Shown in pieces: positions 1 through 24,370 of a stretch of DNA of 64,000 bases. The DNA is from Rubripirellula sp. Its GTDB lineage: Bacteria; Planctomycetota; Planctomycetia; Pirellulales; Pirellulaceae. Every line of letters starts with the position of its first letter. The stretch's first letter is position 1. The notes beneath the pieces were generated by a model. That model was not told the DNA's origin, did no database searches, and worked only from the letters and a program-made list of their open reading frames with translations. The position numbers were made by a program, and so were the translations under genes. The stretch lies in contig OZ244207.1 of assembly GCA_965216875.1 (NCBI GenBank), positions 7,936,001 to 8,000,000 on the forward strand, in the 5' to 3' direction.

Positions 1-2936
1 GTCACATACAGGCGTGATTCCCAAGTCCCGCCAAATTGCACGTTTCCAAACAAGCTCGGGTTGGACCAGGCCCACGACGTTTCATCGTTCCATAAGAGGT
101 GTCCATCGCGTGCTCCACCGTCGTCGTCATCATTATGCTGGACGTCGATGCCAATGAACTGGCCCTCGTTGGGCGTGATGCCAAGGGTCGACCAAGGAAC
201 TTCAACCTCGAAAACGCCTGAGCCTCCCGATTCATTCATGACCCAAGAGACACCCGTCGTGTCGGTCACCGAACCGCTCGCTACTGTGAGCGCGCCATCG
301 GATACTTGAAAAACAACGTGGAAGTCATCGACTAGATCGTAGTCCGAGTTGCTGCTGAAGTCGGGGTTGATGTAAAGCTCGATCGAGTCGTCGTCCCATG
401 GATTGGTCGAGTCGTCGACGATCACGTCATCGGTGAATTCCACCAGGACATACAGGTGCGTGTCGGTCGCCATTGCACGCCATGACGATGTCAAGTCAGC
501 GCCGTTGTCGATCGTTCCATTCTGGTGAGTGATGGAATGTGTGGTAACGTTCGACCAGGCCGCATCGACCGTTCCGTCGACGGTCGGTCCTGAGGCCGCG
601 ATGTTGAGCTGAGCATCAGCGAAGATCGGCATCAAAGCCAAACTGTGAATTTCTTCGTCTGCCGTATCCAGATCCATTTCGTTGCCGGCAAGCAACATCG
701 TTGTGGAACCGATGCTGGTCGCGCCCGCTTGGGTCAGATCGAGTGCGACGATATCGTGTGGTTGGGTCGAAAGACCGCCAGGATCGTCAGCATCGGTAAA
801 GGTCCAGAGCAGCGAACCGTCTCGCAAGGTCGTGCCACCGATCGTCGGCGTGCCCGATACCAGGTGCAAGCCAACGGTGCGGTTGGTGGTGTTGACATTG
901 AGGTCACTCGAATCGATGAAGAGCGACGACGAGCCGACAGAGTTGCTGCCAGCGGTGGTGATTTGCCATCGCGAAACGTCTTCTCCGTCTTCGGCGACAA
1001 GCAGGTCGCCAGCATTCAGGGCCACGCCACCAACGGTGACTGCCGATTCGACAACCGTGATCGCTTGAGCGTCGCTGGTGACACCGATGTCGCTGCCGTC
1101 GATCAACAGAAAGAAGGTTCCGCTGCTCAGATCACCTGGCGTGGTGGGGCGAAAAACAAGGATGTCTTCGTCCGCGACGGCGATACCCGAAATGGTCTCG
1201 TCGGTTGCGGTCGAAAAGAGCACGTCACCTGCAAGTAGCGCCGTTCCGCCAACGGTGACATCGTTGCCAACGTAGTGGATCGCATTGATGTCGGCATCGC
1301 CATCACTCACGTGAGGGTTGAGGTCAAAGACACTTTCGACCGTGCCAAGGGAGGCACCTGGCTCATAGGTGGCTCCGCCAAGACGCAGGATTTCTGCAGC
1401 CTCCCAGTTCGCAAGGCCGTACGTGTTGCTGCCCGTGACGTCGCTGTTGGTGGTGAACAGTAACTCATGCGTCATTCGATCGGGCTGTAGGTACAGTTCA
1501 CGCACGTCGCCTTCGACCAAACCACGGTCGTAAACTCGGAGGTCATCGATCAGTCCATTGAATTCACCTTGGACGGTGCCAGAGTTGTAGGCGCCGATTG
1601 TTGCGGTCGTGAGTCCCTCGAGGTCATCCAGGAAGACGTTCGTCGTATCACTGCCCTCGCTATAGGTTCGTTCCGACGCTTCAAGTTCCTTGCCATTAAT
1701 GTATAGACGGCTTCCGGATGACGTCACGGTGACTGCGACATGGTGCCAGTTGCCATCGTTGATGGTGGCGTTTGATTCGACGCGTAGCGAATAGCTTTCA
1801 TCAATCGAAACGTCGAACTTGAGTTTGCCGCTGTCGAGATAGAACGACATGAAGTCGTCCGTTTCGCTGCCGTCGCCAATGTCGAAGATCGTGCTTACGT
1901 TCGAGCTTGTCGTGTTGATCCAAGCAGAGAACGTTCCTTCTGAAAGCGACGCAAAGGAACTGACGTGAGCCGAGGCGTCAACGCAATCGAGCGTTCCGTC
2001 AAGGCTCAAGTGTCCGTCGCCAATCTGGCTATGAATACTGTCTACGACCGTTGCATTGTCGGTAAGCACTCCGTCGTTGGATCCGGCGCTGTCGCTGGCG
2101 TCCGTTTCGAATTCCCAGTGCGCCGTCAGTCCCGTTTGTATGTCAAGCAGAGACATCCATTGGCTTCGTGCGATCGAGGTGAACGCGACTTCCGTTTCGA
2201 CCACACCGACGGTGTATTCCAGGTCCCAGTCACCGCCAAGGGATTCATGTCCGGTTTGGTCGTCGCTGGCGGCAACATCACACTCGCAAAGAACGCTCAA
2301 CGCATCGATCAGCTGGCGGCCATCGACCGAAGCGGCCAAATCACATCCATAAATCAGAAGGTCGGCATCGGTGTCAAGTGAGTCGGCCCAGCCTGCGATT
2401 TGTCCGGCATAGGCATGTGCCGATTCAATATCCAAATGCGTGCGACCGAGTTGGATTCCTTCGCCATCGCTGTGACTAAGGATGTGAACAGCATCGACTC
2501 CGGAGAGCGAAGCCAAGGTCGACGAAATCGTTTCGACTCCATCTTGTTCGAGAGAGATCGAGACGACGAGCCACTGGGTTTCGTCGTCACCATCGCCCCT
2601 CAGACCGTCGATCAGCGTCTGAGCATCATCAACATTTGAATCGACAAAGACGACTTCAAGGGGAAGTGCCGGGTCGAAAATCGGTTGTTGGTCAAGCGGG
2701 GTCGCCTCGAAGTCCTGGTCAGGTTCGGGCGGTTCAATGTACGGCAGCTCTAAAAATCGATCGGGATCGTGCTGCTGTGCGTCGATCTCTTGCAGCATTA
2801 AATCGACATCGGGCGCAGGCGGATCGATTGCCTCTGCCGGCCCCTCGCCATTCAAGAGGACACGGTCCTCGAGCAAGTAGAAGTTGATCGCGCGTCGCGC
2901 ATTACGGTTTTCAGGGGTGCGGTTTCGTCTGCCCAC
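1..2936 (-). CDS. Giant extracellular/adhesin-like protein, 3' end outside window (LEPR-XLL leader, DUF4347, LamG, beta-repeat region, CBM9-like); not in ORF track
   Basis: Hand translation from GTG at 2936 (alternative in-frame ATG at 2963): MGRRNRTPENRNARRAINFYLLEDRVLLNG. DUF4347 motifs EVVFVD, HILSHSDG, LLIYGCDLA and DVAASDDQTGHESLGGDWDLEY (~2660-2215). LamG motifs WHHVAVT and FNGLIDDLRVY (~2130-1490). CBM9-like FEVEVPWSTLG and IGIDVQHNDDDDGGARD (~590-30). All spot checks fall in one frame that is still open at base 1. Confidence 0.93.
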   Translation of the reverse strand, partial: MGRRNRTPENRNARRAINFYLLEDRVLLNGEGPAEAIDPPAPDVDLMLQEIDAQQHDPDRFLELPYIEPPEPDQDFEATPLDQQPIFDPALPLEVVFVDSNVDDAQTLIDGLRGDGDDETQWLVVSISLEQDGVETISSTLASLSGVDAVHILSHSDGEGIQLGRTHLDIESAHAYAGQIAGWADSLDTDADLLIYGCDLAASVDGRQLIDALSVLCECDVAASDDQTGHESLGGDWDLEYTVGVVETEVAFTSIARSQWMSLLDIQTGLTAHWEFETDASDSAGSNDGVLTDNATVVDSIHSQIGDGHLSLDGTLDCVDASAHVSSFASLSEGTFSAWINTTSSNVSTIFDIGDGSETDDFMSFYLDSGKLKFDVSIDESYSLRVESNATINDGNWHHVAVTVTSSGSRLYINGKELEASERTYSEGSDTTNVFLDDLEGLTTATIGAYNSGTVQGEFNGLIDDLRVYDRGLVEGDVRELYLQPDRMTHELLFTTNSDVTGSNTYGLANWEAAEILRLGGATYEPGASLGTVESVFDLNPHVSDGDADINAIHYVGNDVTVGGTALLAGDVLFSTATDETISGIAVADEDILVFRPTTPGDLSSGTFFLLIDGSDIGVTSDAQAITVVESAVTVGGVALNAGDLLVAEDGEDVSRWQITTAGSNSVGSSSLFIDSSDLNVNTTNRTVGLHLVSGTPTIGGTTLRDGSLLWTFTDADDPGGLSTQPHDIVALDLTQAGATSIGSTTMLLAGNEMDLDTADEEIHSLALMPIFADAQLNIAASGPTVDGTVDAAWSNVTTHSITHQNGTIDNGADLTSSWRAMATDTHLYVLVEFTDDVIVDDSTNPWDDDSIELYINPDFSSNSDYDLVDDFHVVFQVSDGALTVASGSVTDTTGVSWVMNESGGSGVFEVEVPWSTLGITPNEGQFIGIDVQHNDDDDGGARDGHLLWNDETSWAWSNPSLFGNVQFGGTWESRLYV

Positions 2937-3306
2937 GATCGACTTCCACTGCAAAAAAATCATCAAGTGTGCAGCTTCATACACACTGCACCAATCAAAA
3001 CTTAGGTCACTTTCGGACCACCGGTGGGGGATTTACTGGTTCAATCGGAATGTTGCGAAATTGGCGATGGTGCGGAACGACACAATCCGCTCATAGTCAA
3101 TCGCTCCCCCCATGCTAAGGACGCTGCGAATCTGTAGGGCTTGGGGTTCTTCTGCGGCCTTTGCCGAATGCTCATGCCGTATCAGTCTTGCGCACGCAAT
3201 TTCGGCACAGACCGTGCCACCGATACTGGGGATCGAACCGATGAGCGAATGGAGGGGCTGCGCGTAGCCACAGGTCTGCGCGTCCGCCATAGGGGTACGA
3301 AAACAT

Positions 3307-5148
3307 TTGTGGGCAGAAATGTTTAGCCGGCGAATGCGCAAAATGGTCTACACGGCGGTGATCGTTGCGGTTGCAACGATGCCAATGTGGTTCTGCGCGC
3401 ACTCGGTACATGCCCAAACACGATTGCCGGCTGTGGCTCGGCCCGTGAAACTGCCCGCCGTGAAACCCAGCGGCGCGGACAGCTCGGCGGCGACTCCTAC
3501 CTTCATTGCCAGCACCGATTCCACGAGGTTGGATTGGTGGAACGAGAAGGTGAGCGCAAGTTTGCTCGACCAGCCGCGCTGGGTCACCTTTGATCTGCAA
3601 ACCGTCTTGCTCGATACGCTTACCATGAGCCCCCGCATCAAGGGCGTCTCACAACGGACCAGCGTTGCACTCGAACAAATCGTCCAGCAGGACGCGGCAT
3701 TCGATCCGTCGATTCTGTTTGATGGAAAGATCGGACGAACGAATGATCCCGTTGGCAACTCACTCATTACGGGCGGACCTCCAAGGTTGATCGAAGAGTC
3801 CTTGACGTTGCGCGGGGGTATGCAGCGAACGACTCGTCGAGGCACCGAGATCAATCTCAACCAAGAGATCGGACTGCTCGACAGTAACAGCAACTTCTTC
3901 GAGCCGGCACGACAAGCCAACGCGCGACTGAGTTTGAGTTTGACGCAACCACTCCTGGGACGCGGTGGGCGGGTCTATAACGAGCGTCTTTTGACGCAAG
4001 CACGGATCGACAGTAAATCGAGTTGGCAAGAAATGCGTGGCGAGGTCGAAAACCGCATTGCGGAAGTGATCGATGCGTATTGGCGACTCTACGAGCTCCG
4101 CTGCCAATGGATGCAGCAACATGAACTGCTTAAACGCGGCAAGCGGATCGAGGACATCTTGCAGGGACGTGAGGAGTTCGACGCGTCACGCATCGAGCTT
4201 GCCAAAGCACGCGGTCGCGTTGCACGTCGCGTCGATCGCCAGTTGCTGATCGAAGCGGAAATCCAGAAACAACAATCAAGGCTGGCGTCGTTGGTCGGAA
4301 GCGAAGAGCTGGCGATGGCCGATGGGCAATTGGAAATGATCCCGTTGCAATCGCCCGTGATCCCAGCGATCGATATCGAACTTCGCGACGCGGTCGTGCG
4401 TGGGATCGAAAACCGCCCCGAAATCCGGGTCGCTACCGCGGATTTGGAATCGGCAGCGCTGGCAATCGAAGTCACACGGACTGAGCTGATGCCCGAATTG
4501 ACCGGCATCATCGACACTTACTTGATGGGGCTCAATGGTCGTTACAACGTTGGCGAGTCGCTCACCGATCAATTCACTCGCGGCGGTCCTGGCATCTCGG
4601 CCGGACTTCAGTACGAGTTGCCGCGCGGTAGGCGTGCGGCTCGCTCGCGCCACCGCGAGGCGCATCATCTGTACCAGCAACGCAGTGAAGAGCTGCGTGA
4701 AACGATCCAGCTTGCCCGCGCCGAGATCGAAACGGCTTTGATCAACGCCAACCTGGCCCTTGCCCAACAACAAACCAAACGTCGCCTGTTGACCACCGCG
4801 ATGGAAGAGGAAACCGTGCTGACACGTCGTTGGGAAATGATGGGTGGTGACGGGGCAGCCGTCGGTACGGTGCTCGAAAACCTACTCGACGCCCAGCAGC
4901 GTCGGACCGATGCAGAGCGTGAGTGGACAACCGCCCAGATTCGCTACCTGACGTCGCTTGTGGAATTGCAAAGGGCGATGGGGACACTCTTGATTCGCGA
5001 AGGCATTCAACCGATTCGCAGTCATTGCGACAACTCGATTGAGTTCATTCATTCGCAAGCCGGCGAAAAACCGCTTCATACGACTCCCGTTCCGGAAATT
5101 TCGAAAGAGCAATTTGACGCTCTGATCAACGACGAGGTGACTCGATGA
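3307..5148 (+). CDS. TolC-family outer membrane channel protein
   Basis: Signal peptide ending in HSVHA-Q; OEP-type segments SLSLTQPLLG...N, AYWRL, NRPEIR, LLDAQQRR and YLTSLVELQRAMGTL. True start may be a few codons downstream (ATG 3319 onward). Confidence 0.88.
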   Translation: MWAEMFSRRMRKMVYTAVIVAVATMPMWFCAHSVHAQTRLPAVARPVKLPAVKPSGADSSAATPTFIASTDSTRLDWWNEKVSASLLDQPRWVTFDLQTVLLDTLTMSPRIKGVSQRTSVALEQIVQQDAAFDPSILFDGKIGRTNDPVGNSLITGGPPRLIEESLTLRGGMQRTTRRGTEINLNQEIGLLDSNSNFFEPARQANARLSLSLTQPLLGRGGRVYNERLLTQARIDSKSSWQEMRGEVENRIAEVIDAYWRLYELRCQWMQQHELLKRGKRIEDILQGREEFDASRIELAKARGRVARRVDRQLLIEAEIQKQQSRLASLVGSEELAMADGQLEMIPLQSPVIPAIDIELRDAVVRGIENRPEIRVATADLESAALAIEVTRTELMPELTGIIDTYLMGLNGRYNVGESLTDQFTRGGPGISAGLQYELPRGRRAARSRHREAHHLYQQRSEELRETIQLARAEIETALINANLALAQQQTKRRLLTTAMEEETVLTRRWEMMGGDGAAVGTVLENLLDAQQRRTDAEREWTTAQIRYLTSLVELQRAMGTLLIREGIQPIRSHCDNSIEFIHSQAGEKPLHTTPVPEISKEQFDALINDEVTR

Positions 5149-6140
5149 GAACTGAGCCAACAGTAGGTGAATTCCGGTCCAAACACATTCGTGCTTTGGC
5201 GATCGCGTCTCGCACAGGAATCGATAAGCGTTACATGGTGGCTACCGCCGTGTTGTGGACGCTCATGGTGCTTGTCGCGACTTCAGCACAAGCTCAAACG
5301 CGCGAGCATTCCGGAAGTATGGCTTCGATGTTGTACGAAGGGTTCACCGAGCCACTGCACGATATCCAAGTCGCCGCGGCCGAGATTGGACGCCTTGAAA
5401 CGATCGATGTCAAAGTTGGCCAACGTGTGCAGTCCGGCCAAGTACTTGGGAAGCTCGAGGACTCGCTTCAGCAGGCGGCCGTCAAGATCGCCACATTGCA
5501 AAGTTCACTGGTGGGCGAGCTGGAAGCGGCCAAGGCAGAGGTCAAGCTAAACCAATCTCGCACCGACAAGCTTCGCAAACTTGCTCAGGACCGACTCGCT
5601 CGCCCAGATGAGCTGACACGAGCCGAAACCGAGTTGCAGATCTCGTTGGCGCGGCAACTTGCTGCCGAAGAGCAACTCAAGATGAGAGTCGCCGAACTTG
5701 AGCGTTACAAGTTGCAACTCGAACGCCGCAAGATTCGTAGCCCGATGACAGGTGTGATTTCGAAAATCTACCACCAACCCGGCGAGTACATCACTCCTGG
5801 AGACCCTGCCATCATCCGATTGTTGGTGATGGACCGGCTCTACGCGGTGTTTAACGTTCCAGTTGAAGATGTTGTTGGCGTCCAGCCGGGCACCGATGCT
5901 CGCATCTACTTGCGAAGTAGTGGGGTCACCATCGATGCAAAGGTTTCGACGGTGGCACCCGACATCGACGGCGAAAGTGGGACGGTGCAGATCCGAGTCG
6001 AGCTCGACAATGCCAAGGGTACGTTGCTGGCCGGTGACCGATGCACGCTACAGCTGATGCGCACGCATCCGATGTCGCAACGCAGTGCGTTCAACGGTTT
6101 GACACCCCTCCCTCATGTGCAAGGAGCGGATCGGCGATGA
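5145..6140 (+). CDS. Membrane-fusion protein / periplasmic adaptor (HlyD/RND-MFP family)
   Basis: Lipoyl-like halves GRLETIDVKVGQRVQSGQVL and IRSPMTGVI flank a coiled coil; beta-barrel region ends in SGTVQIRVELDN..G.LLAG. ATGA overlap with the TolC stop. Confidence 0.9.
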   Translation: MRTEPTVGEFRSKHIRALAIASRTGIDKRYMVATAVLWTLMVLVATSAQAQTREHSGSMASMLYEGFTEPLHDIQVAAAEIGRLETIDVKVGQRVQSGQVLGKLEDSLQQAAVKIATLQSSLVGELEAAKAEVKLNQSRTDKLRKLAQDRLARPDELTRAETELQISLARQLAAEEQLKMRVAELERYKLQLERRKIRSPMTGVISKIYHQPGEYITPGDPAIIRLLVMDRLYAVFNVPVEDVVGVQPGTDARIYLRSSGVTIDAKVSTVAPDIDGESGTVQIRVELDNAKGTLLAGDRCTLQLMRTHPMSQRSAFNGLTPLPHVQGADRR

Positions 6141-7681
6141 TGAATCCCAAGCATCCAGCCGAGACTGCGATGCACGTCTCGTTGGTCGGAAGCCACGAGG
6201 CGTCGATGACCGATGCGCTCGACGATGCGTTGCAGAAGCTCGCTGCGATCACGCCGCCGCCTGGCGGACCAATCACTCAACACGATGTCGAGGAACAACC
6301 AACGCCGCGAGTCGATCGTGGGCCTTCGGCAAATCATGAGCAAGGCCAAACCAAGCGTTTGATCGCGCTCATTGACGAGATTTCGTCCTCGGCCAGCCGC
6401 GTTGATGCAATGGAAAGGGTCGTTGATTTTCTGTCGGGGCAATTCCCCAATGCCGCTGTGCGATGTGCCAGTGGAACTCATCGCCTTTCGCGACTGTACG
6501 ATGCACGTCTCGGTTGGCTCGGCGCGGAAAGTTCCGTTCGCGACGATGCCGAAAGCCGCTGGGAAACACTCTTCGGCGACCCCGTCAAGGAAATGGAGAG
6601 TGACGCGGGCGCCGATCTGGCCGTTGAATCGAGCATGGATTCCGAGCCGAATTCGGATGCAGAGACCCACTCGGGACCGGAGGCGAGCTGTGATGTTGAC
6701 AACCATCGCGTCGAGCTGAAATTGCCAAACAAAGATGGCGTAGGCAACTGTGTTATCTGGGTCGAGGGTGAAGGGGTCAATTCGATCACCGGGCATTGGC
6801 TTGCGACCTACCCGACGGCGATTGCGAACGTATTTTGGAGTCGACCCGCAAGGTCTTGGCCAAGTCTGCTGTCACGGGTTGGACAAAAGTACAGAATCGC
6901 GCTCGCATCGGTGGCCGTTGCAATTCTCGCGATCGCCGCTTGGCCGGTGCATTACCGAGTCGCTTGCAAAGTCAAGGTCGACACGCTCAAGCAGCGTTTG
7001 GTTGCAACGCCTTTCGAGGCGTCACTACTTGAATCAAACGTCAAGCCTGGTGATACGGTCAAACGGGGCGACGTGCTGGCGAGGTTCGACGGACGACCAC
7101 TGAGGATCGAGCGTGAATCGATTGAGTCCGAGATACAGCAGGCCGCAAAGGAACGCAACGCGGCGCTGGCCAGCGGCAGGATCGCGGATGCACAGCAAGC
7201 GAAACTGAAACGCCAACAGCTCGAGCGCCGCCACCAGCTGCTGACCGATCGGTTACAGCGGCTTGCCGTGGTCAGCCCGATCGACGGCGTGATTGTGAGT
7301 GGAGATTTGGAAAAACATATCGGCACGCCGCTCAAGCTAGGGCAAAAGCTGATGGAAGTGGCGCCGATGGACTACATGATGCTCGAGGTCGAGATACCTG
7401 AGCATGAGATTGGTTTTGTTTCTGCGGAAGCCGATACGCGCATCAAGATCGATGCGATCGGGGGACCCTCGATGCAAATGCAGCTTGACGAGTTGCTTCC
7501 GGCTGCCGAACTACGCGAAGAGCAAAACGTTTTTGTCGGCAGGATCAGGGTCGACAATCAACAATTGAGTCTACGCCCCGGTATGCGAGGTGACGCAACC
7601 GTCTACGGCCCATTGCGCCCGTGGATCTGGTCGTGGGCACGCACAGCAGTTGAACGCACGCTGTGGTGGGTTGGCTACTAG
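6137..7681 (+). CDS. HlyD-family adaptor with N-terminal cytoplasmic (degenerate GAF-like) domain
   Basis: AAGGAG at 6121 and ATG at 6137 overlapping the upstream stop. One TM helix (IALASVAVAILAIAAWP), then VKPGDTVKRGDVL, coiled coil, SPIDGVIVSGDL and LRPGMRG. Confidence 0.85.
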   Translation: MMNPKHPAETAMHVSLVGSHEASMTDALDDALQKLAAITPPPGGPITQHDVEEQPTPRVDRGPSANHEQGQTKRLIALIDEISSSASRVDAMERVVDFLSGQFPNAAVRCASGTHRLSRLYDARLGWLGAESSVRDDAESRWETLFGDPVKEMESDAGADLAVESSMDSEPNSDAETHSGPEASCDVDNHRVELKLPNKDGVGNCVIWVEGEGVNSITGHWLATYPTAIANVFWSRPARSWPSLLSRVGQKYRIALASVAVAILAIAAWPVHYRVACKVKVDTLKQRLVATPFEASLLESNVKPGDTVKRGDVLARFDGRPLRIERESIESEIQQAAKERNAALASGRIADAQQAKLKRQQLERRHQLLTDRLQRLAVVSPIDGVIVSGDLEKHIGTPLKLGQKLMEVAPMDYMMLEVEIPEHEIGFVSAEADTRIKIDAIGGPSMQMQLDELLPAAELREEQNVFVGRIRVDNQQLSLRPGMRGDATVYGPLRPWIWSWARTAVERTLWWVGY

Positions 7682-7694
7682 GGATTCTATTTCT

Positions 7695-9872
7695 GTGAAT
7701 CGAGAATCAAGCGAAACGAACGCACCTTCGACACCGCCACCGATGCGCGTGCGTCTCGATTCGACAGTGACCTTCTCGCAGCGAACTACCGGTGCGCAAA
7801 CGCTGTATGTTGCATATCACGCGGGGCTCGGCAAGTATTTTCAGTTTGGTGCCGAAGAGCATCACATTGCTTCCTTGCTCGATGGCAATCGCACGATTAC
7901 CGACGTCCTGCTTGCACTTCAAGAGGCGGGGATTCAATGGGATCCTCGAGATGTCGCCGAGTTCATCTCGAGGATGGTGGCAAGCAAACTCGCAACCACG
8001 GTCGAAAGTGAATCCACGGCGACGGGACTTGCTGAACCAACACCGACCAAGTCTTCAGGCGATGTGGCCTCAAAGGTTTGGAACGTTCACTTGCCAAAAC
8101 TGCTGGCGCACATTGTTTCTCAGCGGTTTCCGTTGATGAATGGCCAACGTGTCGCGATCGCACTGGAACGACGTTTTGGATCTCTTTTCGATCTGACTGG
8201 CATGGCTTGCTGGGTCATGCTCGTCTTCAGTGGGCTTTTGATTGTCTACGGAAACGCGAACGCGTTTGCCGCCGAATTGAGACGGATGTTTGATCCGAGT
8301 CTGTGGCTGGTGTTGATCGCGATGTGGATTGTTGCCAAAGCGATCCACGAAGCGGGGCATGCGATTGCGGCAAGACATCATGGCGTCAACGTTGGCAAGG
8401 TGGGCGTGATGTTGTTCTTTCTCGCCCCGTTGGCTTACGTCGACGTGACCGACGCATGGAAACTACGCAGTCGATGGCAACGCGTGCAGATCGCCCTGGG
8501 CGGCGTGTATCTCGAAATCGCGGTGGCCGCGATCGCTGCGTGGGTATGGTGGATGTTGCCCGCTGATGCTGCGCTTGCAAAACACCTGGCGGCTCAGTTT
8601 TTCTTGATCGCAGGGCCCGCAACCTTGTTGGTCAATGCGAACCCGTTGTTGCGTTTAGACGGATACTATGTCCTGTCGGACCTGACCGAGATTCCCAATC
8701 TTCGTATGCACGGTCGGCAACAGTTGACTGGCTTGATCCAATTCCTGCTACTTCGCATCCCTCGGCCGACACCGCTCCTGCAAGGATGGCGGCGACGTTT
8801 CGCCACGACGCATGCTCTTCTAAGCGTCGTTTTTCAGATCGTTTGGATGGGCGGTCTAATCGTTGCCGTTTCGATGTGGGCCAAAGGAGTTGGGCTGATC
8901 CTGGCCGGCTCGGCATTCGCTCTATGGTGTGTGATTCCGTTGACACGGACCACGTTGCGGCTGTGGTTGAAGGAACCAGGCGAAGGCTGGTTGAGACTTA
9001 ACGATACCCGACGACGACTGCTTGGACTTGCGAGTTTGATTCTGGTTCTGACTCAATACCTTTGCGCGGCTCGGTCGCCGCTCGATCGCCGTGTCCCCGT
9101 CATCGTTCGTTATCGGAACGAGCAGATCGCTCGGGCGACGGCGGATGCCTTCGTTCGCAACGTCTATGTCACCTCGGGGCAACGCATCAAACGTGGCATG
9201 TTGGTTGCCGAGCTCGAGGATGCGGAATTGGGGGTGCGTCGAAACCAGAAGTCCGACGAGCTTGTGATCGCCGAATTGAAGGCGATCCAACATCGACGAT
9301 TGGGGCAACACGCCCTCGCCGCGGCTCAAACCGAACATGCGGCGAGCCTAAAACGGCAACTTGCCGAACTCGATGCCCAACTGACCGGGCTACGCGTGAT
9401 CGCTCGGCGCGACGGGATCGTGATCGGTTCGCATATCGAGAATCTCGAAGGCGCGTTTGTTGCGGAGGGCCAGGAGCTGTTGCGAATTTGCGATCCGCAA
9501 GAAAAGGAACTGCTGGCGTCCGTTCCAGAGCAAGACATGCAGGCGTATCAAGAGATCGTCGAGAAGGATGTGACAACCGAAGTACGGCTGCGTGGTGGGA
9601 CGATTGTACGTACGGTTCCGGCGTCTCTGCGCCCGCGAGCACGCCGCCGTTTGCCTCACCCTGCCCTCGCCGCAACCGCGGGCGGTCCGCTCGCGGTCGA
9701 ACCGTCGCCCGACGATGATACTGAGCTGAGGACGGTCTTGCCGAGACTTGAGAGTGTGACGAAGCTTGACCCCGTCACGAGCGTCGAGATTCGGGCGGGT
9801 CAAATCGGAACGATGATGATTTCCGACAATCGTTCGCTGGTTTCAAGAATGTTCGACTCTTTGCGCCGTTGA
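7695..9872 (+). CDS. M50 (site-2) intramembrane metalloprotease fused to an N-terminal PqqD/RRE-like domain and a C-terminal HlyD-like adaptor
   Basis: HEAGH (8346-8360), YVDVTDAW and NANPLLRLDGYY (8634-8669) lie in a multi-TM core. C-terminal VTSGQRIKRG, coiled coil and ARRDGIV. Start uncertain (GTG 7695 or ATG 7743). Confidence 0.9.
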   Translation: MNRESSETNAPSTPPPMRVRLDSTVTFSQRTTGAQTLYVAYHAGLGKYFQFGAEEHHIASLLDGNRTITDVLLALQEAGIQWDPRDVAEFISRMVASKLATTVESESTATGLAEPTPTKSSGDVASKVWNVHLPKLLAHIVSQRFPLMNGQRVAIALERRFGSLFDLTGMACWVMLVFSGLLIVYGNANAFAAELRRMFDPSLWLVLIAMWIVAKAIHEAGHAIAARHHGVNVGKVGVMLFFLAPLAYVDVTDAWKLRSRWQRVQIALGGVYLEIAVAAIAAWVWWMLPADAALAKHLAAQFFLIAGPATLLVNANPLLRLDGYYVLSDLTEIPNLRMHGRQQLTGLIQFLLLRIPRPTPLLQGWRRRFATTHALLSVVFQIVWMGGLIVAVSMWAKGVGLILAGSAFALWCVIPLTRTTLRLWLKEPGEGWLRLNDTRRRLLGLASLILVLTQYLCAARSPLDRRVPVIVRYRNEQIARATADAFVRNVYVTSGQRIKRGMLVAELEDAELGVRRNQKSDELVIAELKAIQHRRLGQHALAAAQTEHAASLKRQLAELDAQLTGLRVIARRDGIVIGSHIENLEGAFVAEGQELLRICDPQEKELLASVPEQDMQAYQEIVEKDVTTEVRLRGGTIVRTVPASLRPRARRRLPHPALAATAGGPLAVEPSPDDDTELRTVLPRLESVTKLDPVTSVEIRAGQIGTMMISDNRSLVSRMFDSLRR

Positions 9873-9893: not shown

Positions 9894-10313
9894 CTAGGTA
9901 CCCGGCAAACTCGACGCATCGAACACATCGGGTAACAATTCGGAAAGACGTTTGATTCGATGGGATCCATCTTCAACGTCGGCCATGATCACCCACGTGT
10001 CGAGGGCGAATTCGGAAAGGAATTGCCGACATGCGCCGCAGGGGGAGACGCCCCCTTTGGTCACGACCGCTACGGCGCGCCAGTACCGGTGGCCAGCCGC
10101 GACGGCCGATGCGGCAGCAACGCGTTCGGCACACAAGCACATTGAATAGCTTGCGTTTTCGACATTGCATCCAATGATGATTTCGCCGTCGGGAAGCAAC
10201 AGTGCGGCGCCGACGAGGAAGTTGCTATGTTCGGCAAACGCTCGCAGGCGAGCTTCCGTGGCAGCCGACACCAAGCGGTCAATCTCGTCGGTCGTCAATT
10301 CGGGATTGGACAT
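9894..10313 (-). CDS. cdd: Cytidine deaminase
   Basis: GCNVENASY, CAER and PCGACRQ zinc-deaminase motifs of the tetrameric Cdd type. Confidence 0.95.
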   Translation of the reverse strand: MSNPELTTDEIDRLVSAATEARLRAFAEHSNFLVGAALLLPDGEIIIGCNVENASYSMCLCAERVAAASAVAAGHRYWRAVAVVTKGGVSPCGACRQFLSEFALDTWVIMADVEDGSHRIKRLSELLPDVFDASSLPGT

Positions 10314-17436: not shown

Positions 17437-17576
17437 AGAATCTCAGCCTCTTCGCACACCCCACCACACGAATTCGTATCTCCCCGTCTCACTTGGGCAT
17501 CGCGACCAGTTAAACTGTTTGCCGTTGTGATACTCGGTTCTGTGATAAGTCATTGCAAAGGGAGTTCGACTCGGTG

Positions 17577-18590
17577 ATGAGTTTTGCTCGGCATCTATTC
17601 GGATGGTTACTGGTTTCGACAGTTTTGTTGGGTGGATGTAGCTCATCGTCCAATACGGCTTCAAGTGATCCTGCTGAAGGCGGCGAAAAGACGATTCGCA
17701 TTGCGGTGATTCCTAAGGGGACGACGCACGAATTTTGGAAGTCGATCCACTACGGTGCCAAGCAGGCTGCGGAAGAAATTGGCAACGTCGAGATCATCTG
17801 GCGTGGTCCCGTGATCGAGAGTGACACCGGCAAGCAGATCGAGGTTGTCAAATCGATGGTCACAATGCAGGTCGACGGCATCGTTCTCGCACCGAATCAA
17901 AAGAGCGGCCTTGTCGATACGGTCAATGAGGTCATCGACGAGGGCATTCCTGTTGTCATCTTTGACAGTGGATTGGATGAAGGTCCCGAAATCGTCAGTT
18001 ACGTTGCGACCGACAATTTCAAGGGTGGCCAAATGGCGGCCGACGCGATGGCAAACGCGATTGGTGAAGAGGGCAATGTGATCCTACTGCGTTATGTTGC
18101 CGGCAGCGAAAGCACAGAGCAACGTGAAGAAGGATTCTTGGACGGACTGAAAAAGTACCCCAACATCAAAGTCGTTTCGAGTGACCAACGTGGGGGCGAC
18201 ACCACGACCGAGTCCAAAGAGAAGGTCGATCAGTTGTTGCAGATTCACCACAACGAAAACAACAAGCTGAGTGGGATCTTTGCCGTCTGCGAGCCGAATG
18301 CGAACGGTGCTCTTGAAGCGCTTCGCAACGCGGGTGTGAACAAAGAGGTCAAGATGATCGCCTTTGACCCGAGTGATGCGTTGATCGAAGGACTCGAGGA
18401 TGGTTCGGTTTCCGGGATCGTTTTGCAAGATCCGGTAACGATGGGTTACACCTCGGTCAAAACGATCGTGGCGTCGATGAACGGCGAGTCATCGGACGCG
18501 TTCATTTCGACCGGTGAATATGTCGCGACGCCCGAGAACATGGGTGAAGACCGGTACAAGGAACTCCTGCAACCTGCGATCGAAGAGTAG
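17577..18590 (+). CDS. Sugar ABC transporter substrate-binding lipoprotein (RbsB-like)
   Basis: Lipobox LLGGC; IAVIPKGTTHEFW, GIPVVIFDS, VATDNFKGG and QDPVTMGY. Confidence 0.92.
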   Translation: MSFARHLFGWLLVSTVLLGGCSSSSNTASSDPAEGGEKTIRIAVIPKGTTHEFWKSIHYGAKQAAEEIGNVEIIWRGPVIESDTGKQIEVVKSMVTMQVDGIVLAPNQKSGLVDTVNEVIDEGIPVVIFDSGLDEGPEIVSYVATDNFKGGQMAADAMANAIGEEGNVILLRYVAGSESTEQREEGFLDGLKKYPNIKVVSSDQRGGDTTTESKEKVDQLLQIHHNENNKLSGIFAVCEPNANGALEALRNAGVNKEVKMIAFDPSDALIEGLEDGSVSGIVLQDPVTMGYTSVKTIVASMNGESSDAFISTGEYVATPENMGEDRYKELLQPAIEE

Positions 18591-18728
18591 CCGGCCGGCT
18601 CACGCCCTCCTCCCACCACAAGCCATCCCTCCCTTTCACTTTGCTCATGCGGTCGCATCATTTCGACCCAGAGCAAAGTGTTTTCCTACTGACATCGGTC
18701 ACGATCTTACGCTAGCCAGCTGCTTGCG

Positions 18729-20219
18729 ATGGAAGAAAACGTCTTGCTCGAAATGAAGGGCATCAACAAGCGGTTCGGGCCGACCCGTGCGCTTGCCGAT
18801 GTGTCGCTGCAAGTGCGTCGATCGCGTGTGTTGGCCTTGATTGGCGAAAACGGTGCGGGCAAGAGCACGCTTCTCAAAACTCTTAGCGGTGCGCATCGAT
18901 CTGATTCAGGGACGATGACGATCGACGGAAACGAGTTCCAGCCATCCGGACCGGCCGACGCTCTTTCCAGCGGCGTGGCGATGATCTACCAGGAGCTTAA
19001 CCTGGCACCCGACCTGAGTGTTGAAGACAACTTGATGCTCGGAAAACCGGGCAGCGGTCTGGGGTTGCTCAAGCGATGGCAGCAGCGAGACCGTGTGCTT
19101 GAGGCGTTGCATTCGGTGGGGCTCGGCTCGTTACATCCAAGCGAAACGGTTGGACGGCAATCAGTGGCAACACAGCAGTTGATCGAGATCGCGCGAGCCT
19201 TGATCAGCGAACCGAAAATCATCCTGTTTGACGAGCCAACCAGTTCGCTTCCGCAAAAGGACGTCCAACGTCTGTTCGAGATCATTCATGGATTGAAAAA
19301 GAAGGGGCTGGGAATCGTTTACATCAGCCACTTTCTTGAAGAAGTGCGCGAAGTGGCCGACGATTACGCCGTGCTGCGCGATGGAAACAACGTGGGTGAA
19401 GGCAAAATCGCGGACGTCAGCGACGATGAAATCATCTCGTTGATGGTTGGTCGCGATGTCGAGCATCTTTTCCCGACCGTACCTCACACGCCGGGCGATC
19501 CCTGGGTCGAAGTGGATGCGTTGACCGGTTCGCCAATGCCGAAGGGGGTCACGTTGTCACTTCGGCGCGGCGAGATCTTTGGTGTCGCTGGTCTGGTTGG
19601 CGCCGGTCGCACGGAACTGGTTCGCGCAATTTTCGGACTCGATGCAGTTGATGCAGGAACGGTTGTTGTTGAAGGAAAGCAAATACGAAAGTCAATTCGC
19701 TCGCGAATGGCAGCGGGGTTCAGCTTGCTGTCCGAGGATCGGAAAAACGAAGGTCTCGCCCAGGACTTGTCGATCGTCGAAAACATCACGATGGGGTCGT
19801 TGTCGCCCTACACAACGGCTGGCGTTCTCGATTTGAAACGTCGTGAGAAGGACGCTGCCGAATTGATGCGCACCGTCGAGGTCAAAGCGCACTCGGGCGG
19901 CCAGAGTGTTTCCGAGCTTTCAGGGGGCAATCAACAGAAGGTTGCAATTGCGAGAATCTTGCATCAAAAGGCAGACATCTTGATGCTGGATGAACCAACC
20001 AAAGGCATCGATGTGGGGACGAAAGCGGAGGTGTACCGGATGATGGGTGAGCTCGCGGCGGAAGGTAAAACGGTCGTCTTCATCAGCTCGTACCTTCCCG
20101 AGCTGCTTGCTGTCTGTGATCGCATTGGCGTGATGTCTCGCGGTGAAATGCGTCAGGTCAGTGACACGTCCGAGTGGACCGAAGATGCGGTGATGGCTGC
20201 GGCGATCTCGCTCGATTAG
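18729..20219 (+). CDS. Sugar ABC transporter ATP-binding protein (RbsA-like, two ABC domains)
   Basis: GENGAGKS, FDEPT, ISH, LSGGNQQK and LDEPTKGIDVG. Confidence 0.95.
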   Translation: MEENVLLEMKGINKRFGPTRALADVSLQVRRSRVLALIGENGAGKSTLLKTLSGAHRSDSGTMTIDGNEFQPSGPADALSSGVAMIYQELNLAPDLSVEDNLMLGKPGSGLGLLKRWQQRDRVLEALHSVGLGSLHPSETVGRQSVATQQLIEIARALISEPKIILFDEPTSSLPQKDVQRLFEIIHGLKKKGLGIVYISHFLEEVREVADDYAVLRDGNNVGEGKIADVSDDEIISLMVGRDVEHLFPTVPHTPGDPWVEVDALTGSPMPKGVTLSLRRGEIFGVAGLVGAGRTELVRAIFGLDAVDAGTVVVEGKQIRKSIRSRMAAGFSLLSEDRKNEGLAQDLSIVENITMGSLSPYTTAGVLDLKRREKDAAELMRTVEVKAHSGGQSVSELSGGNQQKVAIARILHQKADILMLDEPTKGIDVGTKAEVYRMMGELAAEGKTVVFISSYLPELLAVCDRIGVMSRGEMRQVSDTSEWTEDAVMAAAISLD

Positions 20220-20248
20220 ATAAGACAAAGGTTCGAAGAGAAAACCAG

Positions 20249-21346
20249 ATGAGCGATTCATCGTCCACTGACAACAGCAATTCGATTGGCCGTCTGATGC
20301 GCGGCTTTAGTTGGGGCCAGCTCGGTCCGATGCTTGCTTTGGTCGTGATCATCGTCTTGTTTGCAATTGCCGAAGGGGCGTTGGGACAAGGCGTATTTGT
20401 GTCGGCACGCAATGCGCGCGTGATCCTCAGTTCAACAGCACTGGTTGCCGTCCCCGCCCTCGGGATGACGATCATCATCATCGCGGCTGGAATCGATTTG
20501 TCGGCCGGGACAGCGTTGACACTGTGCGGAACCGTGCTGGCGAGCTGCTTCAAGTTTTCAGAGGTCACGTCGGGGGAAAGTGGCTTTGCGTTTTACGTCA
20601 CGATGTACTTGGGGCTGACCGTTTTGGTTGGCTGCTTTTGCGGGGCCGTCAACGGCGGTTTGATTGCCGCAACAAGGGTCGTGCCTTTCATCGTCACGCT
20701 CGGAACGATGACCATCTTTCTTGGCGTTGGTCAAATCGTCGCCGATGAATCTTCGGTCAAAGCAGACCCCGATAGCTATCCCGAGTGGATCCGTTTCCTT
20801 TGCTACACCGGAAAGAATGCCGACAACTATTTGATGCCGTATCTTTCGATTCCCACCAGTGCATTAATTTGCGTTGCTCTGGCGATCTTGCTTGCCCTGG
20901 TGCTGAAGTACACCGTACTTGGTCGCAATATTTTTGCGATTGGTTCAAACGAATCGACAGCGCGTCTTTGCGGGATCAATGTTCCGTTGACGTTGATTGC
21001 GGTCTACACCATTTCAGGTTTCTTTGTTGCAGTCGGCGGGTTGCTTTATTTTTCGGACGTCAAAATTGGTAACCCTTCTGACGGTATGGGCAAAGAGCTA
21101 GAGATCATCGCGGCCGTCGTGCTTGGCGGCGGCAGTCTCAGCGGCGGTCGCGGTTCCGTGTTGGGAACGTTGGTCGGCGCTCTCATCATCACCGTGATCC
21201 GCAACGGCTGCACGCTGCTTTCGATACCCAATACATATACGCTGATCATCATCGGCTGCATCATCATCGCTGCTGTGATCGTCGATCAATTGCGACACGG
21301 GTCCCCCGAGTGGTTCTTTCGGATGATTCGTAAAGGCCCGCAGTGA
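20249..21346 (+). CDS. Sugar ABC transporter permease (RbsC-like)
   Basis: GIDLSAG, PFIVTLG, GRNIFAIGSN..TARLCGI and ELEIIAAVVLGGGSLSGGRG. Confidence 0.93.
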   Translation: MSDSSSTDNSNSIGRLMRGFSWGQLGPMLALVVIIVLFAIAEGALGQGVFVSARNARVILSSTALVAVPALGMTIIIIAAGIDLSAGTALTLCGTVLASCFKFSEVTSGESGFAFYVTMYLGLTVLVGCFCGAVNGGLIAATRVVPFIVTLGTMTIFLGVGQIVADESSVKADPDSYPEWIRFLCYTGKNADNYLMPYLSIPTSALICVALAILLALVLKYTVLGRNIFAIGSNESTARLCGINVPLTLIAVYTISGFFVAVGGLLYFSDVKIGNPSDGMGKELEIIAAVVLGGGSLSGGRGSVLGTLVGALIITVIRNGCTLLSIPNTYTLIIIGCIIIAAVIVDQLRHGSPEWFFRMIRKGPQ

Positions 21347-21465
21347 CAGGGTTTGCGATCGGTCGCGCCCTTCTGAAACGCTAAAATGTGCCTGTGGAGC
21401 GTGCCGCCATCGGGTGGCGACTTACAGACACGAAATGGCTGGCGGACGCGTGGTTCGTCATTGGA

Positions 21466-22806
21466 ATGAAATACAAGTTACATCTTCTTCTGGGCATCTT
21501 GGCGTGGACCACGGTGACGATTGCGGTTGCCGGCGTGGTGGGTGGACAAAGATCGAAAGCCAGCCGAACGGCGCTGGTGGACTATTTCACCAAGCGTCCG
21601 TCCACGCTGGAGTTGACCGATGCTTCGTCGAGATTGCGGCGAAATGATCCTGTCTTTATGCAAGACAGTAGCGGTCAATGGAGTCAGGTCGGCCACGTTG
21701 AACGCGGGCGAGCTGATGACAAGGGGCAGACGGGCAAGGGGCAGGCTGACGATCGTCAAGTAAGGATTCGTTGGTACGGTGATGTCGATCCCGACCAGCT
21801 CGAGTGGGAATACCACTACAGTTCCGGCCGGTTAGAGGAAGTGGTGCAGACCATGTTGCCGCCGGAGAAACGGGCTCAGATTCAACAGCGGTTTGCAGAT
21901 CTTTTCCAGCAGCATGGCCGAGAGATGACCGCGGCGCTCTTGCCGTTGGTTGAAGAGTCACTGCGACGGTCGGTTCCGATTGTCGAAAAGGAGTTTCGTG
22001 CGGCGACGAGACGTCATCGTGATGAAATCGATGAGCTCGCTTTGCGCTGGAATGAGGAAGTGATTGACGAGCGATTGATTCCGCTCGCACGTCGCGAAAT
22101 AATGCCATCGGTTCGCAGGCACGGCCAGCCGCTTGCTGAGGAGATTGGTCGCGAATTGTGGGATCGCGCTTCCCTGTGGCGATTCGGGTGGCGCGCACTC
22201 TATGACAAAGCCCCTTTGCCACAACGCAACTTGGTGCGAAGCGAGTGGGACCGCTTCGTCGAACAGGAAGCTGAACCGGTTTTCCGATCGCATTCGGACG
22301 ACATCGTGGGAGTGGTTCAGCGAATCATGACCGACGTTGCTTCGAACCGAAATGTTCGCCGCGAACTTGGCGAAGTGGCCGAGTCCGTTGCGTCGGACCC
22401 GGATGCACGAGCTCTTGTACGTGTTCTGTTGAAAGAGTCGCTGCTCGAGAACCAGGAGTTGCGTGATCTGTGGAAGGAGATTTGGACAAGCGACCGAGCT
22501 CGGAGTGCGATTGACCTTGCCGGTGACCGGATTGAACCTGTTGTGCGTTCGATCGGTGATGACCTTTTCGGGACGCCTGAGGATGGGATCAATCCCGATT
22601 TTGCACGGGTCCTTCGAAATCAAATCCTTGGCAAAGACCGGCGCTGGATCGTGGCGACCGCAGGGGATGCGGATTCTGCCGCGGATCCAGTGATCACCAT
22701 TGCCAGTGGTTCGATGCCCTACCCGCTCGTTTACATGGCCGACGGCATCGACCCATTTGCTGCGCCAGCCGTCGAATCGCGCGCGGAGGCTGGCAAGAGT
22801 GAGTGA
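21466..22806 (+). CDS. Membrane-anchored protein with divergent MCE/MlaD-like N-domain and long helical region
   Basis: N-terminal TM; ASSRLRRNDPVF...VGHVE resembles the MCE pattern GL..G.PV...G..VG.V. About 280 aa look amphipathic-helical. Overlaps the start of the MlaFE fusion. Confidence 0.6.
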   Translation: MKYKLHLLLGILAWTTVTIAVAGVVGGQRSKASRTALVDYFTKRPSTLELTDASSRLRRNDPVFMQDSSGQWSQVGHVERGRADDKGQTGKGQADDRQVRIRWYGDVDPDQLEWEYHYSSGRLEEVVQTMLPPEKRAQIQQRFADLFQQHGREMTAALLPLVEESLRRSVPIVEKEFRAATRRHRDEIDELALRWNEEVIDERLIPLARREIMPSVRRHGQPLAEEIGRELWDRASLWRFGWRALYDKAPLPQRNLVRSEWDRFVEQEAEPVFRSHSDDIVGVVQRIMTDVASNRNVRRELGEVAESVASDPDARALVRVLLKESLLENQELRDLWKEIWTSDRARSAIDLAGDRIEPVVRSIGDDLFGTPEDGINPDFARVLRNQILGKDRRWIVATAGDADSAADPVITIASGSMPYPLVYMADGIDPFAAPAVESRAEAGKSE

Positions 22807-24370
22807 CGATGAGCCTCGCGAGCTTCGCCCGCTGCGTCTGTCTCAATTGCATATCGCGGTGGGCGACCTAGTCCTGTTGAACGAGACATCGCTGGATGTT
22901 TCCGCTGGCAAAATCACGGTGATTGTGGGTGGTAGCGGGGCGGGAAAATCGGTGCTGCTGCGCACCCTTGCCGGTTTGATCCCCAAGCAGGGCGGCCCGG
23001 TCACTTGGCGCGGAAGCATCGAGTTTGGCGAAACAAAACCGCGGGTTGGGATCGTATTCCAGCAGTTTGCCCTGTTCGATGAATTGTCGCCAACAGCAAA
23101 CGTGCAATTCGCAATCGATCACCGAACCGATCGATCGAAACCACCGGGCCAGACGGCGGCAGAATGGTTGGACGAATTGGGCGTTCCGGCCAAGACACGC
23201 GTGTCAGCACTGAGCGGCGGACAAAAGCAACGCCTCGCGATCGCGAGAACATTGGCAGCAGACCCCGACGTTGTGCTTTATGACGAACCGACCTCAGGAC
23301 TCGATGCGGCGAGCGGAAAAAAAGTCGCTGATCTGATCCGGGCAACCCAGACAGCTCATCGTCGCACCAGCATCGTCGTCACGCATGATTATGAAACGTT
23401 GCTGCCGATCGCAGATGAAGTCCTCTTGCTTGATGCGGGCGAGGCAAAGCTGATTCCGATTCCTAAAGAAGAATGGGATCAGATTCCCGATCGAATGGCA
23501 CTCGTTCAACGTGGAAGCAATGTCGCCGGCAAGCTGTCGAGTGGCGAACCGTCCCGGATGCCCGTCTGGGTTGGCCAACGATTGGGCGACTTCATGGCGG
23601 CAAGCGGTCGAGTGGTGACCGCGTCGGCCCGGTTGCCCTATGATTTGCTTCCGATCGTCCCGCGACCTCGCTGGGGCATCCGATTTCTGATGCACTATTT
23701 GCGATTGGTTGGTGGGCCATCGGCGTGGCTGTACCTGATCATGGCAGGAATGATTGTCGGGTTCACGGCGACCTATTTCACGTTTCGTTTCCTGCCGTTC
23801 CGGCTTTACACCCAGCCCTTGTTGATTGATGAACTGTTGTCATCGATCGGGTTTGCGCTCTATCGAATTCTCGTTCCGGTGCTGGCAACCGTTTTGGTCG
23901 CAGCCCGTTGCGGTGCTGCGGTTGCCGCGGACGTGGGCGTCAAGCAATACGGTGGGCAAGCGGACGCAATGCGCACACTTGGGGTCAAGCCGCGATCTTA
24001 CTTGATGTTGCCGATTGTCGTTGCCTTTGTGATCGCCACGCCCCTCTTGGAATGGCTTGCCTTTTCGGCCGCCCAGTGGGTCAGCTTGATCACGTTTGCT
24101 GAGACCCATCCCGAGGTTGGTTTGCATTACTGGAATCAACATTTCTTTCGCAATTTGACCGACGAGGGCTCGTCGATGCTGGTGGGATGGCATTGGGTGA
24201 CATTGAAAAACGTTCTCTGTGGTGTCGGTACGGCGACGATCGGTTACTATCGTGGGATTGCCGCCAAGCACTCGACAACCGATGTTTCCAACGCGATCAC
24301 GGCGACCGTGTTGTGGACCACACTTTATGTGCTGGTTGTTCATTTCGTTGTCGCCCTGCTGGAATTCTAG
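22799..24370 (+). CDS. Fused MlaF-like ABC ATPase and MlaE-like permease
   Basis: GGSGAGKS, VFQQ, LSGGQ, YDEPTSGLD and VTHD, followed by MlaE-type PVLATVLVAARCGAAVAAD.G......DAMRTLGVKP.SYL and KNVLCG...YYRG...DVSNAITATV. Confidence 0.88.
   Translation: MSDDEPRELRPLRLSQLHIAVGDLVLLNETSLDVSAGKITVIVGGSGAGKSVLLRTLAGLIPKQGGPVTWRGSIEFGETKPRVGIVFQQFALFDELSPTANVQFAIDHRTDRSKPPGQTAAEWLDELGVPAKTRVSALSGGQKQRLAIARTLAADPDVVLYDEPTSGLDAASGKKVADLIRATQTAHRRTSIVVTHDYETLLPIADEVLLLDAGEAKLIPIPKEEWDQIPDRMALVQRGSNVAGKLSSGEPSRMPVWVGQRLGDFMAASGRVVTASARLPYDLLPIVPRPRWGIRFLMHYLRLVGGPSAWLYLIMAGMIVGFTATYFTFRFLPFRLYTQPLLIDELLSSIGFALYRILVPVLATVLVAARCGAAVAADVGVKQYGGQADAMRTLGVKPRSYLMLPIVVAFVIATPLLEWLAFSAAQWVSLITFAETHPEVGLHYWNQHFFRNLTDEGSSMLVGWHWVTLKNVLCGVGTATIGYYRGIAAKHSTTDVSNAITATVLWTTLYVLVVHFVVALLEF

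Follow-up and report, generated by a model that had tools for sequence, protein, structure and literature searches.

The stretch of DNA analysed here (the window; 64,000 nucleotides from the complete 8.26-Mb genome of Rubripirellula sp., contig OZ244207.1, positions 7,936,001 to 8,000,000) opens with part of the gene for a giant surface protein. Divergent from it, on the plus strand, lies an operon in which open reading frame (ORF) and Pfam analysis identified, in this order, genes for a TolC-family channel (tolC), a free periplasmic adaptor of the membrane fusion protein (MFP) type (mfp), a membrane-anchored adaptor (hlyD) and a fusion of an M50 intramembrane zinc protease with a further adaptor (m50-hlyD). 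We lean towards the view that the locus encodes a leader-guided trans-envelope exporter that is powered by SecA and whose motor gene lies elsewhere in the genome, and the giant protein is likely the cargo of the operon. Planctomycetes and many Gram-negative bacteria encode very large LEPR-XLL-tagged surface proteins that have neither Sec nor RTX signals and whose exit route is unexplained; this locus supplies candidates for the receptor (an RRE domain), the signal (a leader), the protease, a duct of fixed geometry, a retention tail and the motor. If this is correct, it would be a secretion route without an ABC transporter or SecYEG, and an intramembrane protease would gain a role in protein transport. 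The locus type itself is no first sighting, being a SecA-less variant of a module described in 2015, and the export of giant surface proteins in planctomycetes becomes directly testable.

The first-pass annotation of this DNA, made from the sequence alone, described a tightly coupled operon, and this was borne out: ATGA overlaps at 5145-5148 and 6137-6140 couple the first three genes, and 13 bp separate the hlyD stop at 7681 from the GTG start of m50-hlyD at 7695. Its description of a divergent DUF4347/LamG/CBM9 giant without a Sec-type signal held as well, there being no hydrophobic stretch at the N-terminus of the giant, and RTX nonapeptides (GGxGxD) number 0 in its 4,729 residues. No Walker A motif occurs in the five genes of the locus or anywhere in the entire giant, no RND match was found in the operons, and all four operon genes are assigned to functions other than an RND or MFS transporter; cdd follows on the opposite strand, as had been noted. 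Chance adjacency of these genes was ruled out by synteny across relatives, and pseudogene status by open frames and invariant catalytic residues.

All 121 Pirellulaceae genomes searched contain a match to M50-HlyD, and the source genome has six full-length genes of this kind. A clear orthologue of the window's gene (44-65% identity) is present in 17 Pirellulaceae genomes; in the M50 tree 11 of these and the window gene form one long-stemmed clade (SH-aLRT 100), whose sister is not resolved. The visible gene order is kept in 17/17 orthologous operons, and neither SecA nor an RND gene was seen inside them (three contigs end within the operon), nor any HlyB-type ABC exporter in them or in the window locus. 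Where the upstream region can be seen (14 loci), there is a divergent DUF4347 giant in eight, a GGDEF-HD gene in its place in five and neither of them in one. Beyond the orthologous giants there is a GGDEF-HD gene in five of seven cases, a second giant in one and no ABC or RND gene. The neighbourhood survey that the first-pass annotation proposed has therefore revealed no consistent ABC or RND partner. In the source genome itself the region beyond the giant holds a PAS-GGDEF-HD gene with a membrane-anchored product (genome 7922041-7924764), again with no ABC or RND gene. A paralogous operon, tolC-secA-mfp-hlyD-m50 (genome 7468744-7477532), has the window's order plus SecA; it lies between a hybrid histidine kinase gene and an RND operon, with no adjoining giant. 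Another paralogous operon is SecA-less (tolC-mfp-small-hlyD-m50) and carries a small unannotated gene between its adaptors (genome 7830192-7830719).

The ORF of the giant runs beyond the window, and its product combines DUF4347, LamG and CBM9 domains with a beta-helix, 15 tandem 137-aa repeats and cadherin/Ig domains. Its start is probably the GTG at 2936, to judge from orthologues, which begin 6-35 residues ahead of an N-terminal tag. The giants begin with FYxLEDR[IV]LL, in which F, L, E, D, R, L and L are invariant in 9/9 aligned giants, and an orthologous giant matches the LEPR-XLL model NF012209 (19.7 bits, above the cut-off of 17). About 60 further large proteins of the source genome start with a tag of the LExLExRxLL type: a looser tag pattern, which fails to catch the window's own giant, was found in the first 130 residues of 60 out of 1,560 ORFs of at least 500 aa, and once in a control stretch. 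We also surveyed 80 genomes across Planctomycetota, kin among which are not independent; 23 have an M50-HlyD fusion and 57 do not. LEPR-XLL matches at E<=0.01 were present in 10 of the 23 module-bearing genomes (8 families) and in none of the 57 others, and at E<=0.1 in 12/23 and 3/57. The model Planc_extracel (PF07595) gave 0 matches above its cut-off in these 80 genomes and sub-threshold matches in seven of them, four with the module and three without, a split that is not informative.

Among the proteins of the locus, the M50-HlyD fusion alone is polytopic, with seven predicted membrane segments. Its structural model (pLDDT 84.9) has three parts. Residues 15-105 adopt a three-strand, three-helix winged fold in the model and resemble the RRE domains of TbiB1 (Z 11.0, root-mean-square deviation (rmsd) 2.6 over 81 residues), TfuB1 (Z 10.9), MibB and PbtF; sequence comparison gave a weaker but agreeing answer, with PqqD matches in 6/15 members and PaaA at E 0.0017. 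The membrane part resembles RseP (Z 10.7) and SpoIVFB (Z 9.6) and the C-terminal part MacA/MexA (Z 14), while a Foldseek search with the whole fusion returned adaptor matches only. Sequence and predicted fold agree in placing HExxH and NxxPxxxxDG motifs of the site-2 protease type within a polytopic domain. The closest named family is NF041824, the daptide RRE-M50 protease MpaP (E 5e-44; 151 bits against a cut-off of 300), which is described as removing leaders with the motif ELExMEAP (10.1101/2023.03.08.531785). The window's system shares with MpaP the fusion of an RRE to a site-2 protease, and with MpaP and peptidase-containing ABC transporters (PCATs) an acidic LExxE-type leader motif and, if the proposed mechanism holds, leader removal coupled to export. 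It differs from MpaP in that the M50 protease is fused to a periplasmic adaptor and that the proposed substrate is a protein of about 4,700 aa and not a short ribosomally synthesised and post-translationally modified peptide (RiPP); no RiPP precursor or modification genes are found in the locus. From these likenesses we infer that the RRE binds the N-terminal leader of the giant.

The strongest sign of a real conduit under selection is the fixed length of the adaptor hairpins. Outside the core-type operons the hairpin has 58 residues in 16/16 M50 fusions and 15/15 anchored adaptors, and 90 residues in 17/17 free adaptors; in core-type paralogues the lengths differ (63; 104 and 175). Because the hairpins of the two anchored adaptors are equal in length, we suggest that these form one mixed ring, and that the longer free adaptor, which has a signal-peptide-like N-terminus, reaches TolC. 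The N-terminal domain of the anchored adaptor is placed in the cytoplasm. No Pfam GAF domain was found in it and its profile match to GAF-bearing paralogues was 0.3%; an atlas search gave a lead of 0.88 to GAF clusters, and paralogues do carry GAF. The channel protein falls below the cut-offs of TIGR01844/01845, and the true start of tolC is possibly one of the ATGs at 3319-3343.

Besides a canonical SecA of 1,234 aa, the source genome encodes two short SecAs of 673 and 761 aa. We examined 42 chosen genomes, 18 with a window-type operon and 24 with low-scoring core-type matches only; a short SecA is encoded elsewhere in the genome in 18/18 of the former, and Walker A, DExD and motif VI are kept in 21/21 short SecAs examined. 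Action in trans has a precedent, since the two distant genomes that were examined carry the SecA of the core operon in cis, whereas in the window's lineage this SecA stands alone, split from its adaptors yet conserved. In more distant Pirellulaceae the orthologue of one stand-alone short SecA gene of the source genome (7640010-7642295) sits in the same locus as the core GAF-HlyD/MFP/M50 trio. Nine of the 17 orthologue genomes encode a short SecA of a third class, which stands alone, has 570-595 aa and intact motifs and sits on a long branch; three of the four orthologue genomes without the operon-linked type are among these nine. The SecA tree is a quick one in which long branches meet, and it does not settle the origin of this class or of the window's clade. 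One gene of the third class is divergent from a tagged DUF4347 giant.

These observations bear directly on an ATPase-free version of the model of the first-pass annotation, in which the four genes suffice, the M50 protein is the translocase and no ATPase takes part, so that proton-motive force or extracellular folding would have to pull the chain. The absence of SecA from 17/17 orthologous operons that centre on a monophyletic, long-stemmed clade speaks for such a model, and this SecA-less clade is the cleanest setting for asking whether a motor is needed. However, all 18 genomes with the operon have an intact short SecA, sister operons have SecA in cis, and a third SecA type replaces the missing operon-linked type in most of the genomes concerned, which makes an ATPase-free exporter improbable in our view. 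We have retained the part of the earlier reading in which the M50 protein and the adaptors form the translocase for the giant, given the lack of ABC and RND genes in the orthologous operons, the single polytopic protein and the divergent giant in 8/14 loci; the idea that M50 takes the place of an energiser found no support as it stood, the module normally containing a truncated SecA.

Export by the favoured SecA-powered route might proceed as follows. The cytoplasmic RRE of the M50 fusion would bind the N-terminal LExLEDRxLL leader of the giant, and a short secondary SecA acting in trans would feed the unfolded chain, N-terminus first, into an inner-membrane entry lined by the M50 helices and the single helix of the second adaptor. 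The M50 domain, whose active site is conserved, would cut off the leader, in line with the activity of the related RRE-M50 daptide protease. Beyond the membrane the two anchored adaptors with their 58-residue hairpins would make up the mixed ring, with the 90-residue free adaptor as the bridge to TolC. The Gly/Ala-rich C-terminal tail of the giant would then halt transfer and keep the adhesin attached to the cell until its cleavage or release, a step that is probably under the control of the neighbouring cyclic di-GMP (c-di-GMP) enzyme. The caspase-like DUF4347 domain may add an autocatalytic cut. Nothing significant was found for DUF4347 by sequence against the PDB, and a fold search was needed; its predicted fold is caspase/CHAT-like (Tce1, Z 13.6; SAVED-CHAT, Z 11.0, rmsd 2.9 over 135 residues; caspases too), and because His171 and Cys214 are invariant in the alignment within this fold, the domain may be an autoprotease.

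The module to which the locus belongs was described by Kamneva, Poudel and Ward in 2015 (PMC4452313) as a conserved locus that combines a truncated secondary SecA_DEAD protein with Peptidase_M50-HlyD, GAF-HlyD, a small HlyD and sometimes OEP and has no ABC transporter; SecA was proposed as the ATPase and M50 as the inner-membrane pore. Shared with the window are the three adaptor-type genes and OEP, the lack of an ABC gene and Planctomycetes among the hosts, and Peptidase_M50-HlyD, the small HlyD/biotin-lipoyl protein and the optional OEP are all present here. The window's clade differs in having no SecA in cis (0/17 orthologues) and no detectable GAF in HlyD. As far as its accessible text goes, the 2015 study is purely computational and mentions neither a cargo nor a leader, an RRE, a tail or a c-di-GMP neighbour; it does state that parts of the module can sit elsewhere in the genome, and its supplementary gene trees may include SecA-less loci. 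The first-pass annotation had mentioned similar neighbourhoods in other bacteria and no mechanistic characterisation: our literature search, to which subscription papers were mostly inaccessible, indeed found no experimental study of the module, but the module and the idea of an M50 pore were already in print. The accessible portions of two reviews (PMC4446572 and PMC8277102) make no mention of M50-adaptor fusions.

An alternative that we consider unlikely, yet worth weighing, is a two-step route in which a SecA, secondary or canonical, and SecYEG carry the giant to the periplasm, the C-terminal tail retains it in the inner membrane, the M50 protease acts as a sortase or maturase on leader or tail, and the adaptors and TolC serve the outer step only. 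The tail does resemble a sorting signal (linker, hydrophobic segment, charged end), secondary SecAs keep the PP-binding domain, and two LEPRxLL giants of Chlorobium chlorochromatii, said to be without known transport signals, are reported to be made and pooled in the periplasm and exported on contact with the partner (10.64898/2026.03.19.712371). The Chlorobium genes adjoin tolC and sapC, and the same report notes that hlyD occurs there as an orphan and that a secA was acquired recently; the export of these giants and this gene content also speak for the favoured SecA-powered route. However, the leader of the planctomycete giants has no hydrophobic h-region, the wing/scaffold domain, through which SecA contacts SecY, is described as largely missing from secondary SecAs (PMC4452313), and two of the three adaptors have cytoplasmic domains and an anchor in the inner membrane, which is what a continuous duct would lead one to expect.

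The giants of this family share a distinctive C-terminus, in which a Pro/Asp/Glu low-complexity linker is followed by a Gly/Ala/Ser-rich (40%) hydrophobic segment (mean hydropathy 1.5) and a short charged end. The hydrophobic segment ends in GYxxWxxRGG, and PxWxxxDP follows about 32 residues before the C-terminus, the spacing from W to PxW being fixed at 16 residues in 139/140 tails. No Pfam or NCBIfam model matched the tail. It is found in 6/7 complete divergent giants of orthologous loci; the 5,463-aa giant of one orthologous locus ends tail-less where its frame enters a short repeated palindromic element, possibly through truncation or an assembly artefact. Among 37 tail-bearing proteins of at least 1,000 aa, 22 have the leader and 23 have DUF4347, and overall the tail defines 4,597 clusters at 50% identity, Burkholderiales and Nitrospira included. 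With one genome per genus, the tail is present in 38/45 genomes whose best M50 match has E<=1e-55 and in 5/51 others, and of the 23 tails in nine single-contig genomes, 10 are no more than 50 kb away from an M50 gene of that kind, where 0.68 were expected; 3 of these 10 are training sequences of the tail profile. Three more tail proteins of the source genome lie far from any M50 locus (genome 3418348-3421236, 3567946-3577065 and 5821742-5824873); two of them also have the leader and DUF4347, and the three are likely cargo served in trans. In several relatives giants with leader, DUF4347 and tail are arranged as tandem arrays. The idea that the recognition domain of the M50 fusion reads this tail was dropped, because the 23 module-bearing genomes of the phylum survey have no detectable tail and the RRE family binds N-terminal leaders.

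A similar C-terminal build of linker, hydrophobic segment and charged end, found on surface proteins alongside an intramembrane protease, is known from the GlyGly-CTERM/rhombosortase and PEP-CTERM/exosortase systems. The window's tail differs from these sorting signals in its second conserved block (RGG...PxWxxxDP), in the M50 protease and in the linkage to TolC. Type I secretion of giant adhesins (HlyB-HlyD-TolC; LapBCE-LapA) likewise has a duct of TolC and MFP and a giant, repetitive cargo without a signal peptide, and the Lap system retains its adhesin at the cell surface under c-di-GMP control, which is probable for the window's giant as well. In contrast to type I secretion, the window locus lacks an ABC exporter and RTX repeats, and it has three different adaptors and an intramembrane zinc protease; in contrast to LapA, its giant has an N-terminal leader and a hydrophobic C-terminal tail, so that the polarity is opposite. 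The MFP and the TolC-family outer-membrane factor of a canonical type I system are present, and the ABC exporter and the RTX/uncleaved C-terminal signal are absent. To judge from the genes, the locus looks like one that works in the manner of a leader-dependent type I exporter yet is no member of that family, since it has neither ABC nor RTX.

To our knowledge, every TolC/MFP system characterised so far works with an ABC, RND or MFS partner, and one could suppose that an ABC exporter or RND pump acting in trans gives both channel and energy, with M50 as leader peptidase only, like the C39 domain of PCATs. Stand-alone ABC ATPase genes do occur within 3 kb downstream in 3/17 orthologous loci, and the RND operon beside the paralogous SecA-containing operon is about 4 kb away from it. 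These neighbours are not conserved, however, and the RTX-free cargo offers them no signal of that type; moreover, against six M50-HlyD loci the source genome has only four ABC-exporter membrane genes, of which the one resembling type I secretion owns its adaptor and outer-membrane factor. We give this explanation hardly any credence. The MlaE-fused ABC gene (22700-24370) and the sugar ABC importer (17553-21346) within the window were rejected as partners, being non-exporters that lie 8-13 kb off and do not recur beside orthologues. Only a little less improbable is a purely signalling function, in which M50 cuts the tail or the leader on surface contact, the product regulates the c-di-GMP enzyme and the giant is exported by other means. 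In its favour, 31/62 tail loci have, no more than 10 kb away, a homologue of the sensor/PAS region next door, and in 5/14 orthologous loci the operon has kept the GGDEF-HD gene as its neighbour although no giant is there; yet TolC and three adaptors with invariant hairpins would then go unexplained, and an alternative path would find neither a Sec signal nor RTX repeats on the giant.

Several points weigh against the SecA-powered exporter. We know of no protein-conducting role for an M50 protease. The window operon has no SecA in cis, and the third SecA class is missing from the source genome; at least one short SecA was found in 41/42 genomes tested, so that its co-occurrence with the operon is not discriminating. 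NF012209 (the LEPR-8K model) does not match the leader of the window's own giant, and in 6/14 orthologous loci the operon persists although no giant adjoins it. The presence of the tail in 47/56 Pirellulaceae genomes with a best M50 match of E<=1e-55 and 6/64 others speaks for the exporter, but 7 of the 47 positives are genomes on which the tail profile was trained; in the 80 phylum genomes outside the family, 23 of which carry the module, there was one weak, stop-containing match, and the tail is either no general part of the machine or has diverged. The periplasmic pool of the Chlorobium giants (10.64898/2026.03.19.712371) would fit the two-step route equally well.

On a broader scale, we propose more tentatively, as an idea that may well not hold, that the RRE-M50-adaptor machine is a distinct type of secretion system and the main export route of the planctomycete surface proteome, with a shared SecA-like motor in trans and a protease that would be receptor, gate and maturase at once; TolC-linked copies such as the window's would specialise in tailed giants. 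The grounds for this idea are the fusion's presence in 121/121 Pirellulaceae genomes, the six copies in the source genome and its roughly 60 tagged large proteins. The features of the locus are collected in Table 1.

Table 1. Features of the export locus and its boundary gene (window positions unless stated otherwise)
Feature	Position	Strand	Remarks
Giant surface protein, 5' part	3..2984	-	likely start GTG at 2936
Giant, remaining 3,735 aa including C-terminal tail	left of window, genome 7924795-7936002
LEPR-XLL-like leader motif FYLLEDRVLLNG, proposed RRE ligand	2847..2882	-	alignment of 9 giants
DUF4347 domain	2145..2654	-	Pfam E 7e-47
LamG / concanavalin-like domain	1503..1961	-	Pfam Laminin_G_3 E 1e-21
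CBM9-like domain	36..581	-	Pfam CBM9_1 E 3e-39
TolC-family outer-membrane channel	3307..5148	+	Pfam OEP E 2e-21; signal-peptide-like N-terminus
Free periplasmic adaptor (MFP)	5145..6140	+	HlyD_D23/HlyD_3; TIGR01730 132 bits, above cut-off
Anchored adaptor (HlyD; N-terminal domain, one transmembrane helix, MFP)	6137..7681	+
RRE-M50-MFP fusion, 725 aa	7695..9872	+	Peptidase_M50 and HlyD
RRE (PqqD-like leader-recognition) domain	7737..8009	+	fold matches to RRE domains
HExxH zinc motif (HEAGH)	8346..8360	+	H, E, H invariant in 19/19 (alignment takes in paralogues)
NANPLLRLDG, third zinc ligand (Asp)	8634..8663	+	N, N, L, R, D, G invariant in 19/19 (same alignment)
cdd (cytidine deaminase), convergent boundary gene	9894..10313	-	Pfam dCMP_cyt_deam_1

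The cdd gene is outside the export system, and the same boundary recurs in 5/17 orthologous loci. A scan of the locus for promoters and terminators gave counts not above those of shuffled sequence (1 against 2.3 and 9 against 8.8, respectively). Further along the window, inspection of translations identified an operon for a ribose-type ABC sugar importer (17553-21346), which is followed at 21388-24370 by an unannotated 472-aa gene and a fusion of an ABC ATPase with an MlaE permease. A highly reducing type I polyketide synthase (KS-AT-DH-ER-KR-ACP), preceded by an AMP-ligase-ACP fusion, is encoded at 25607-34226.

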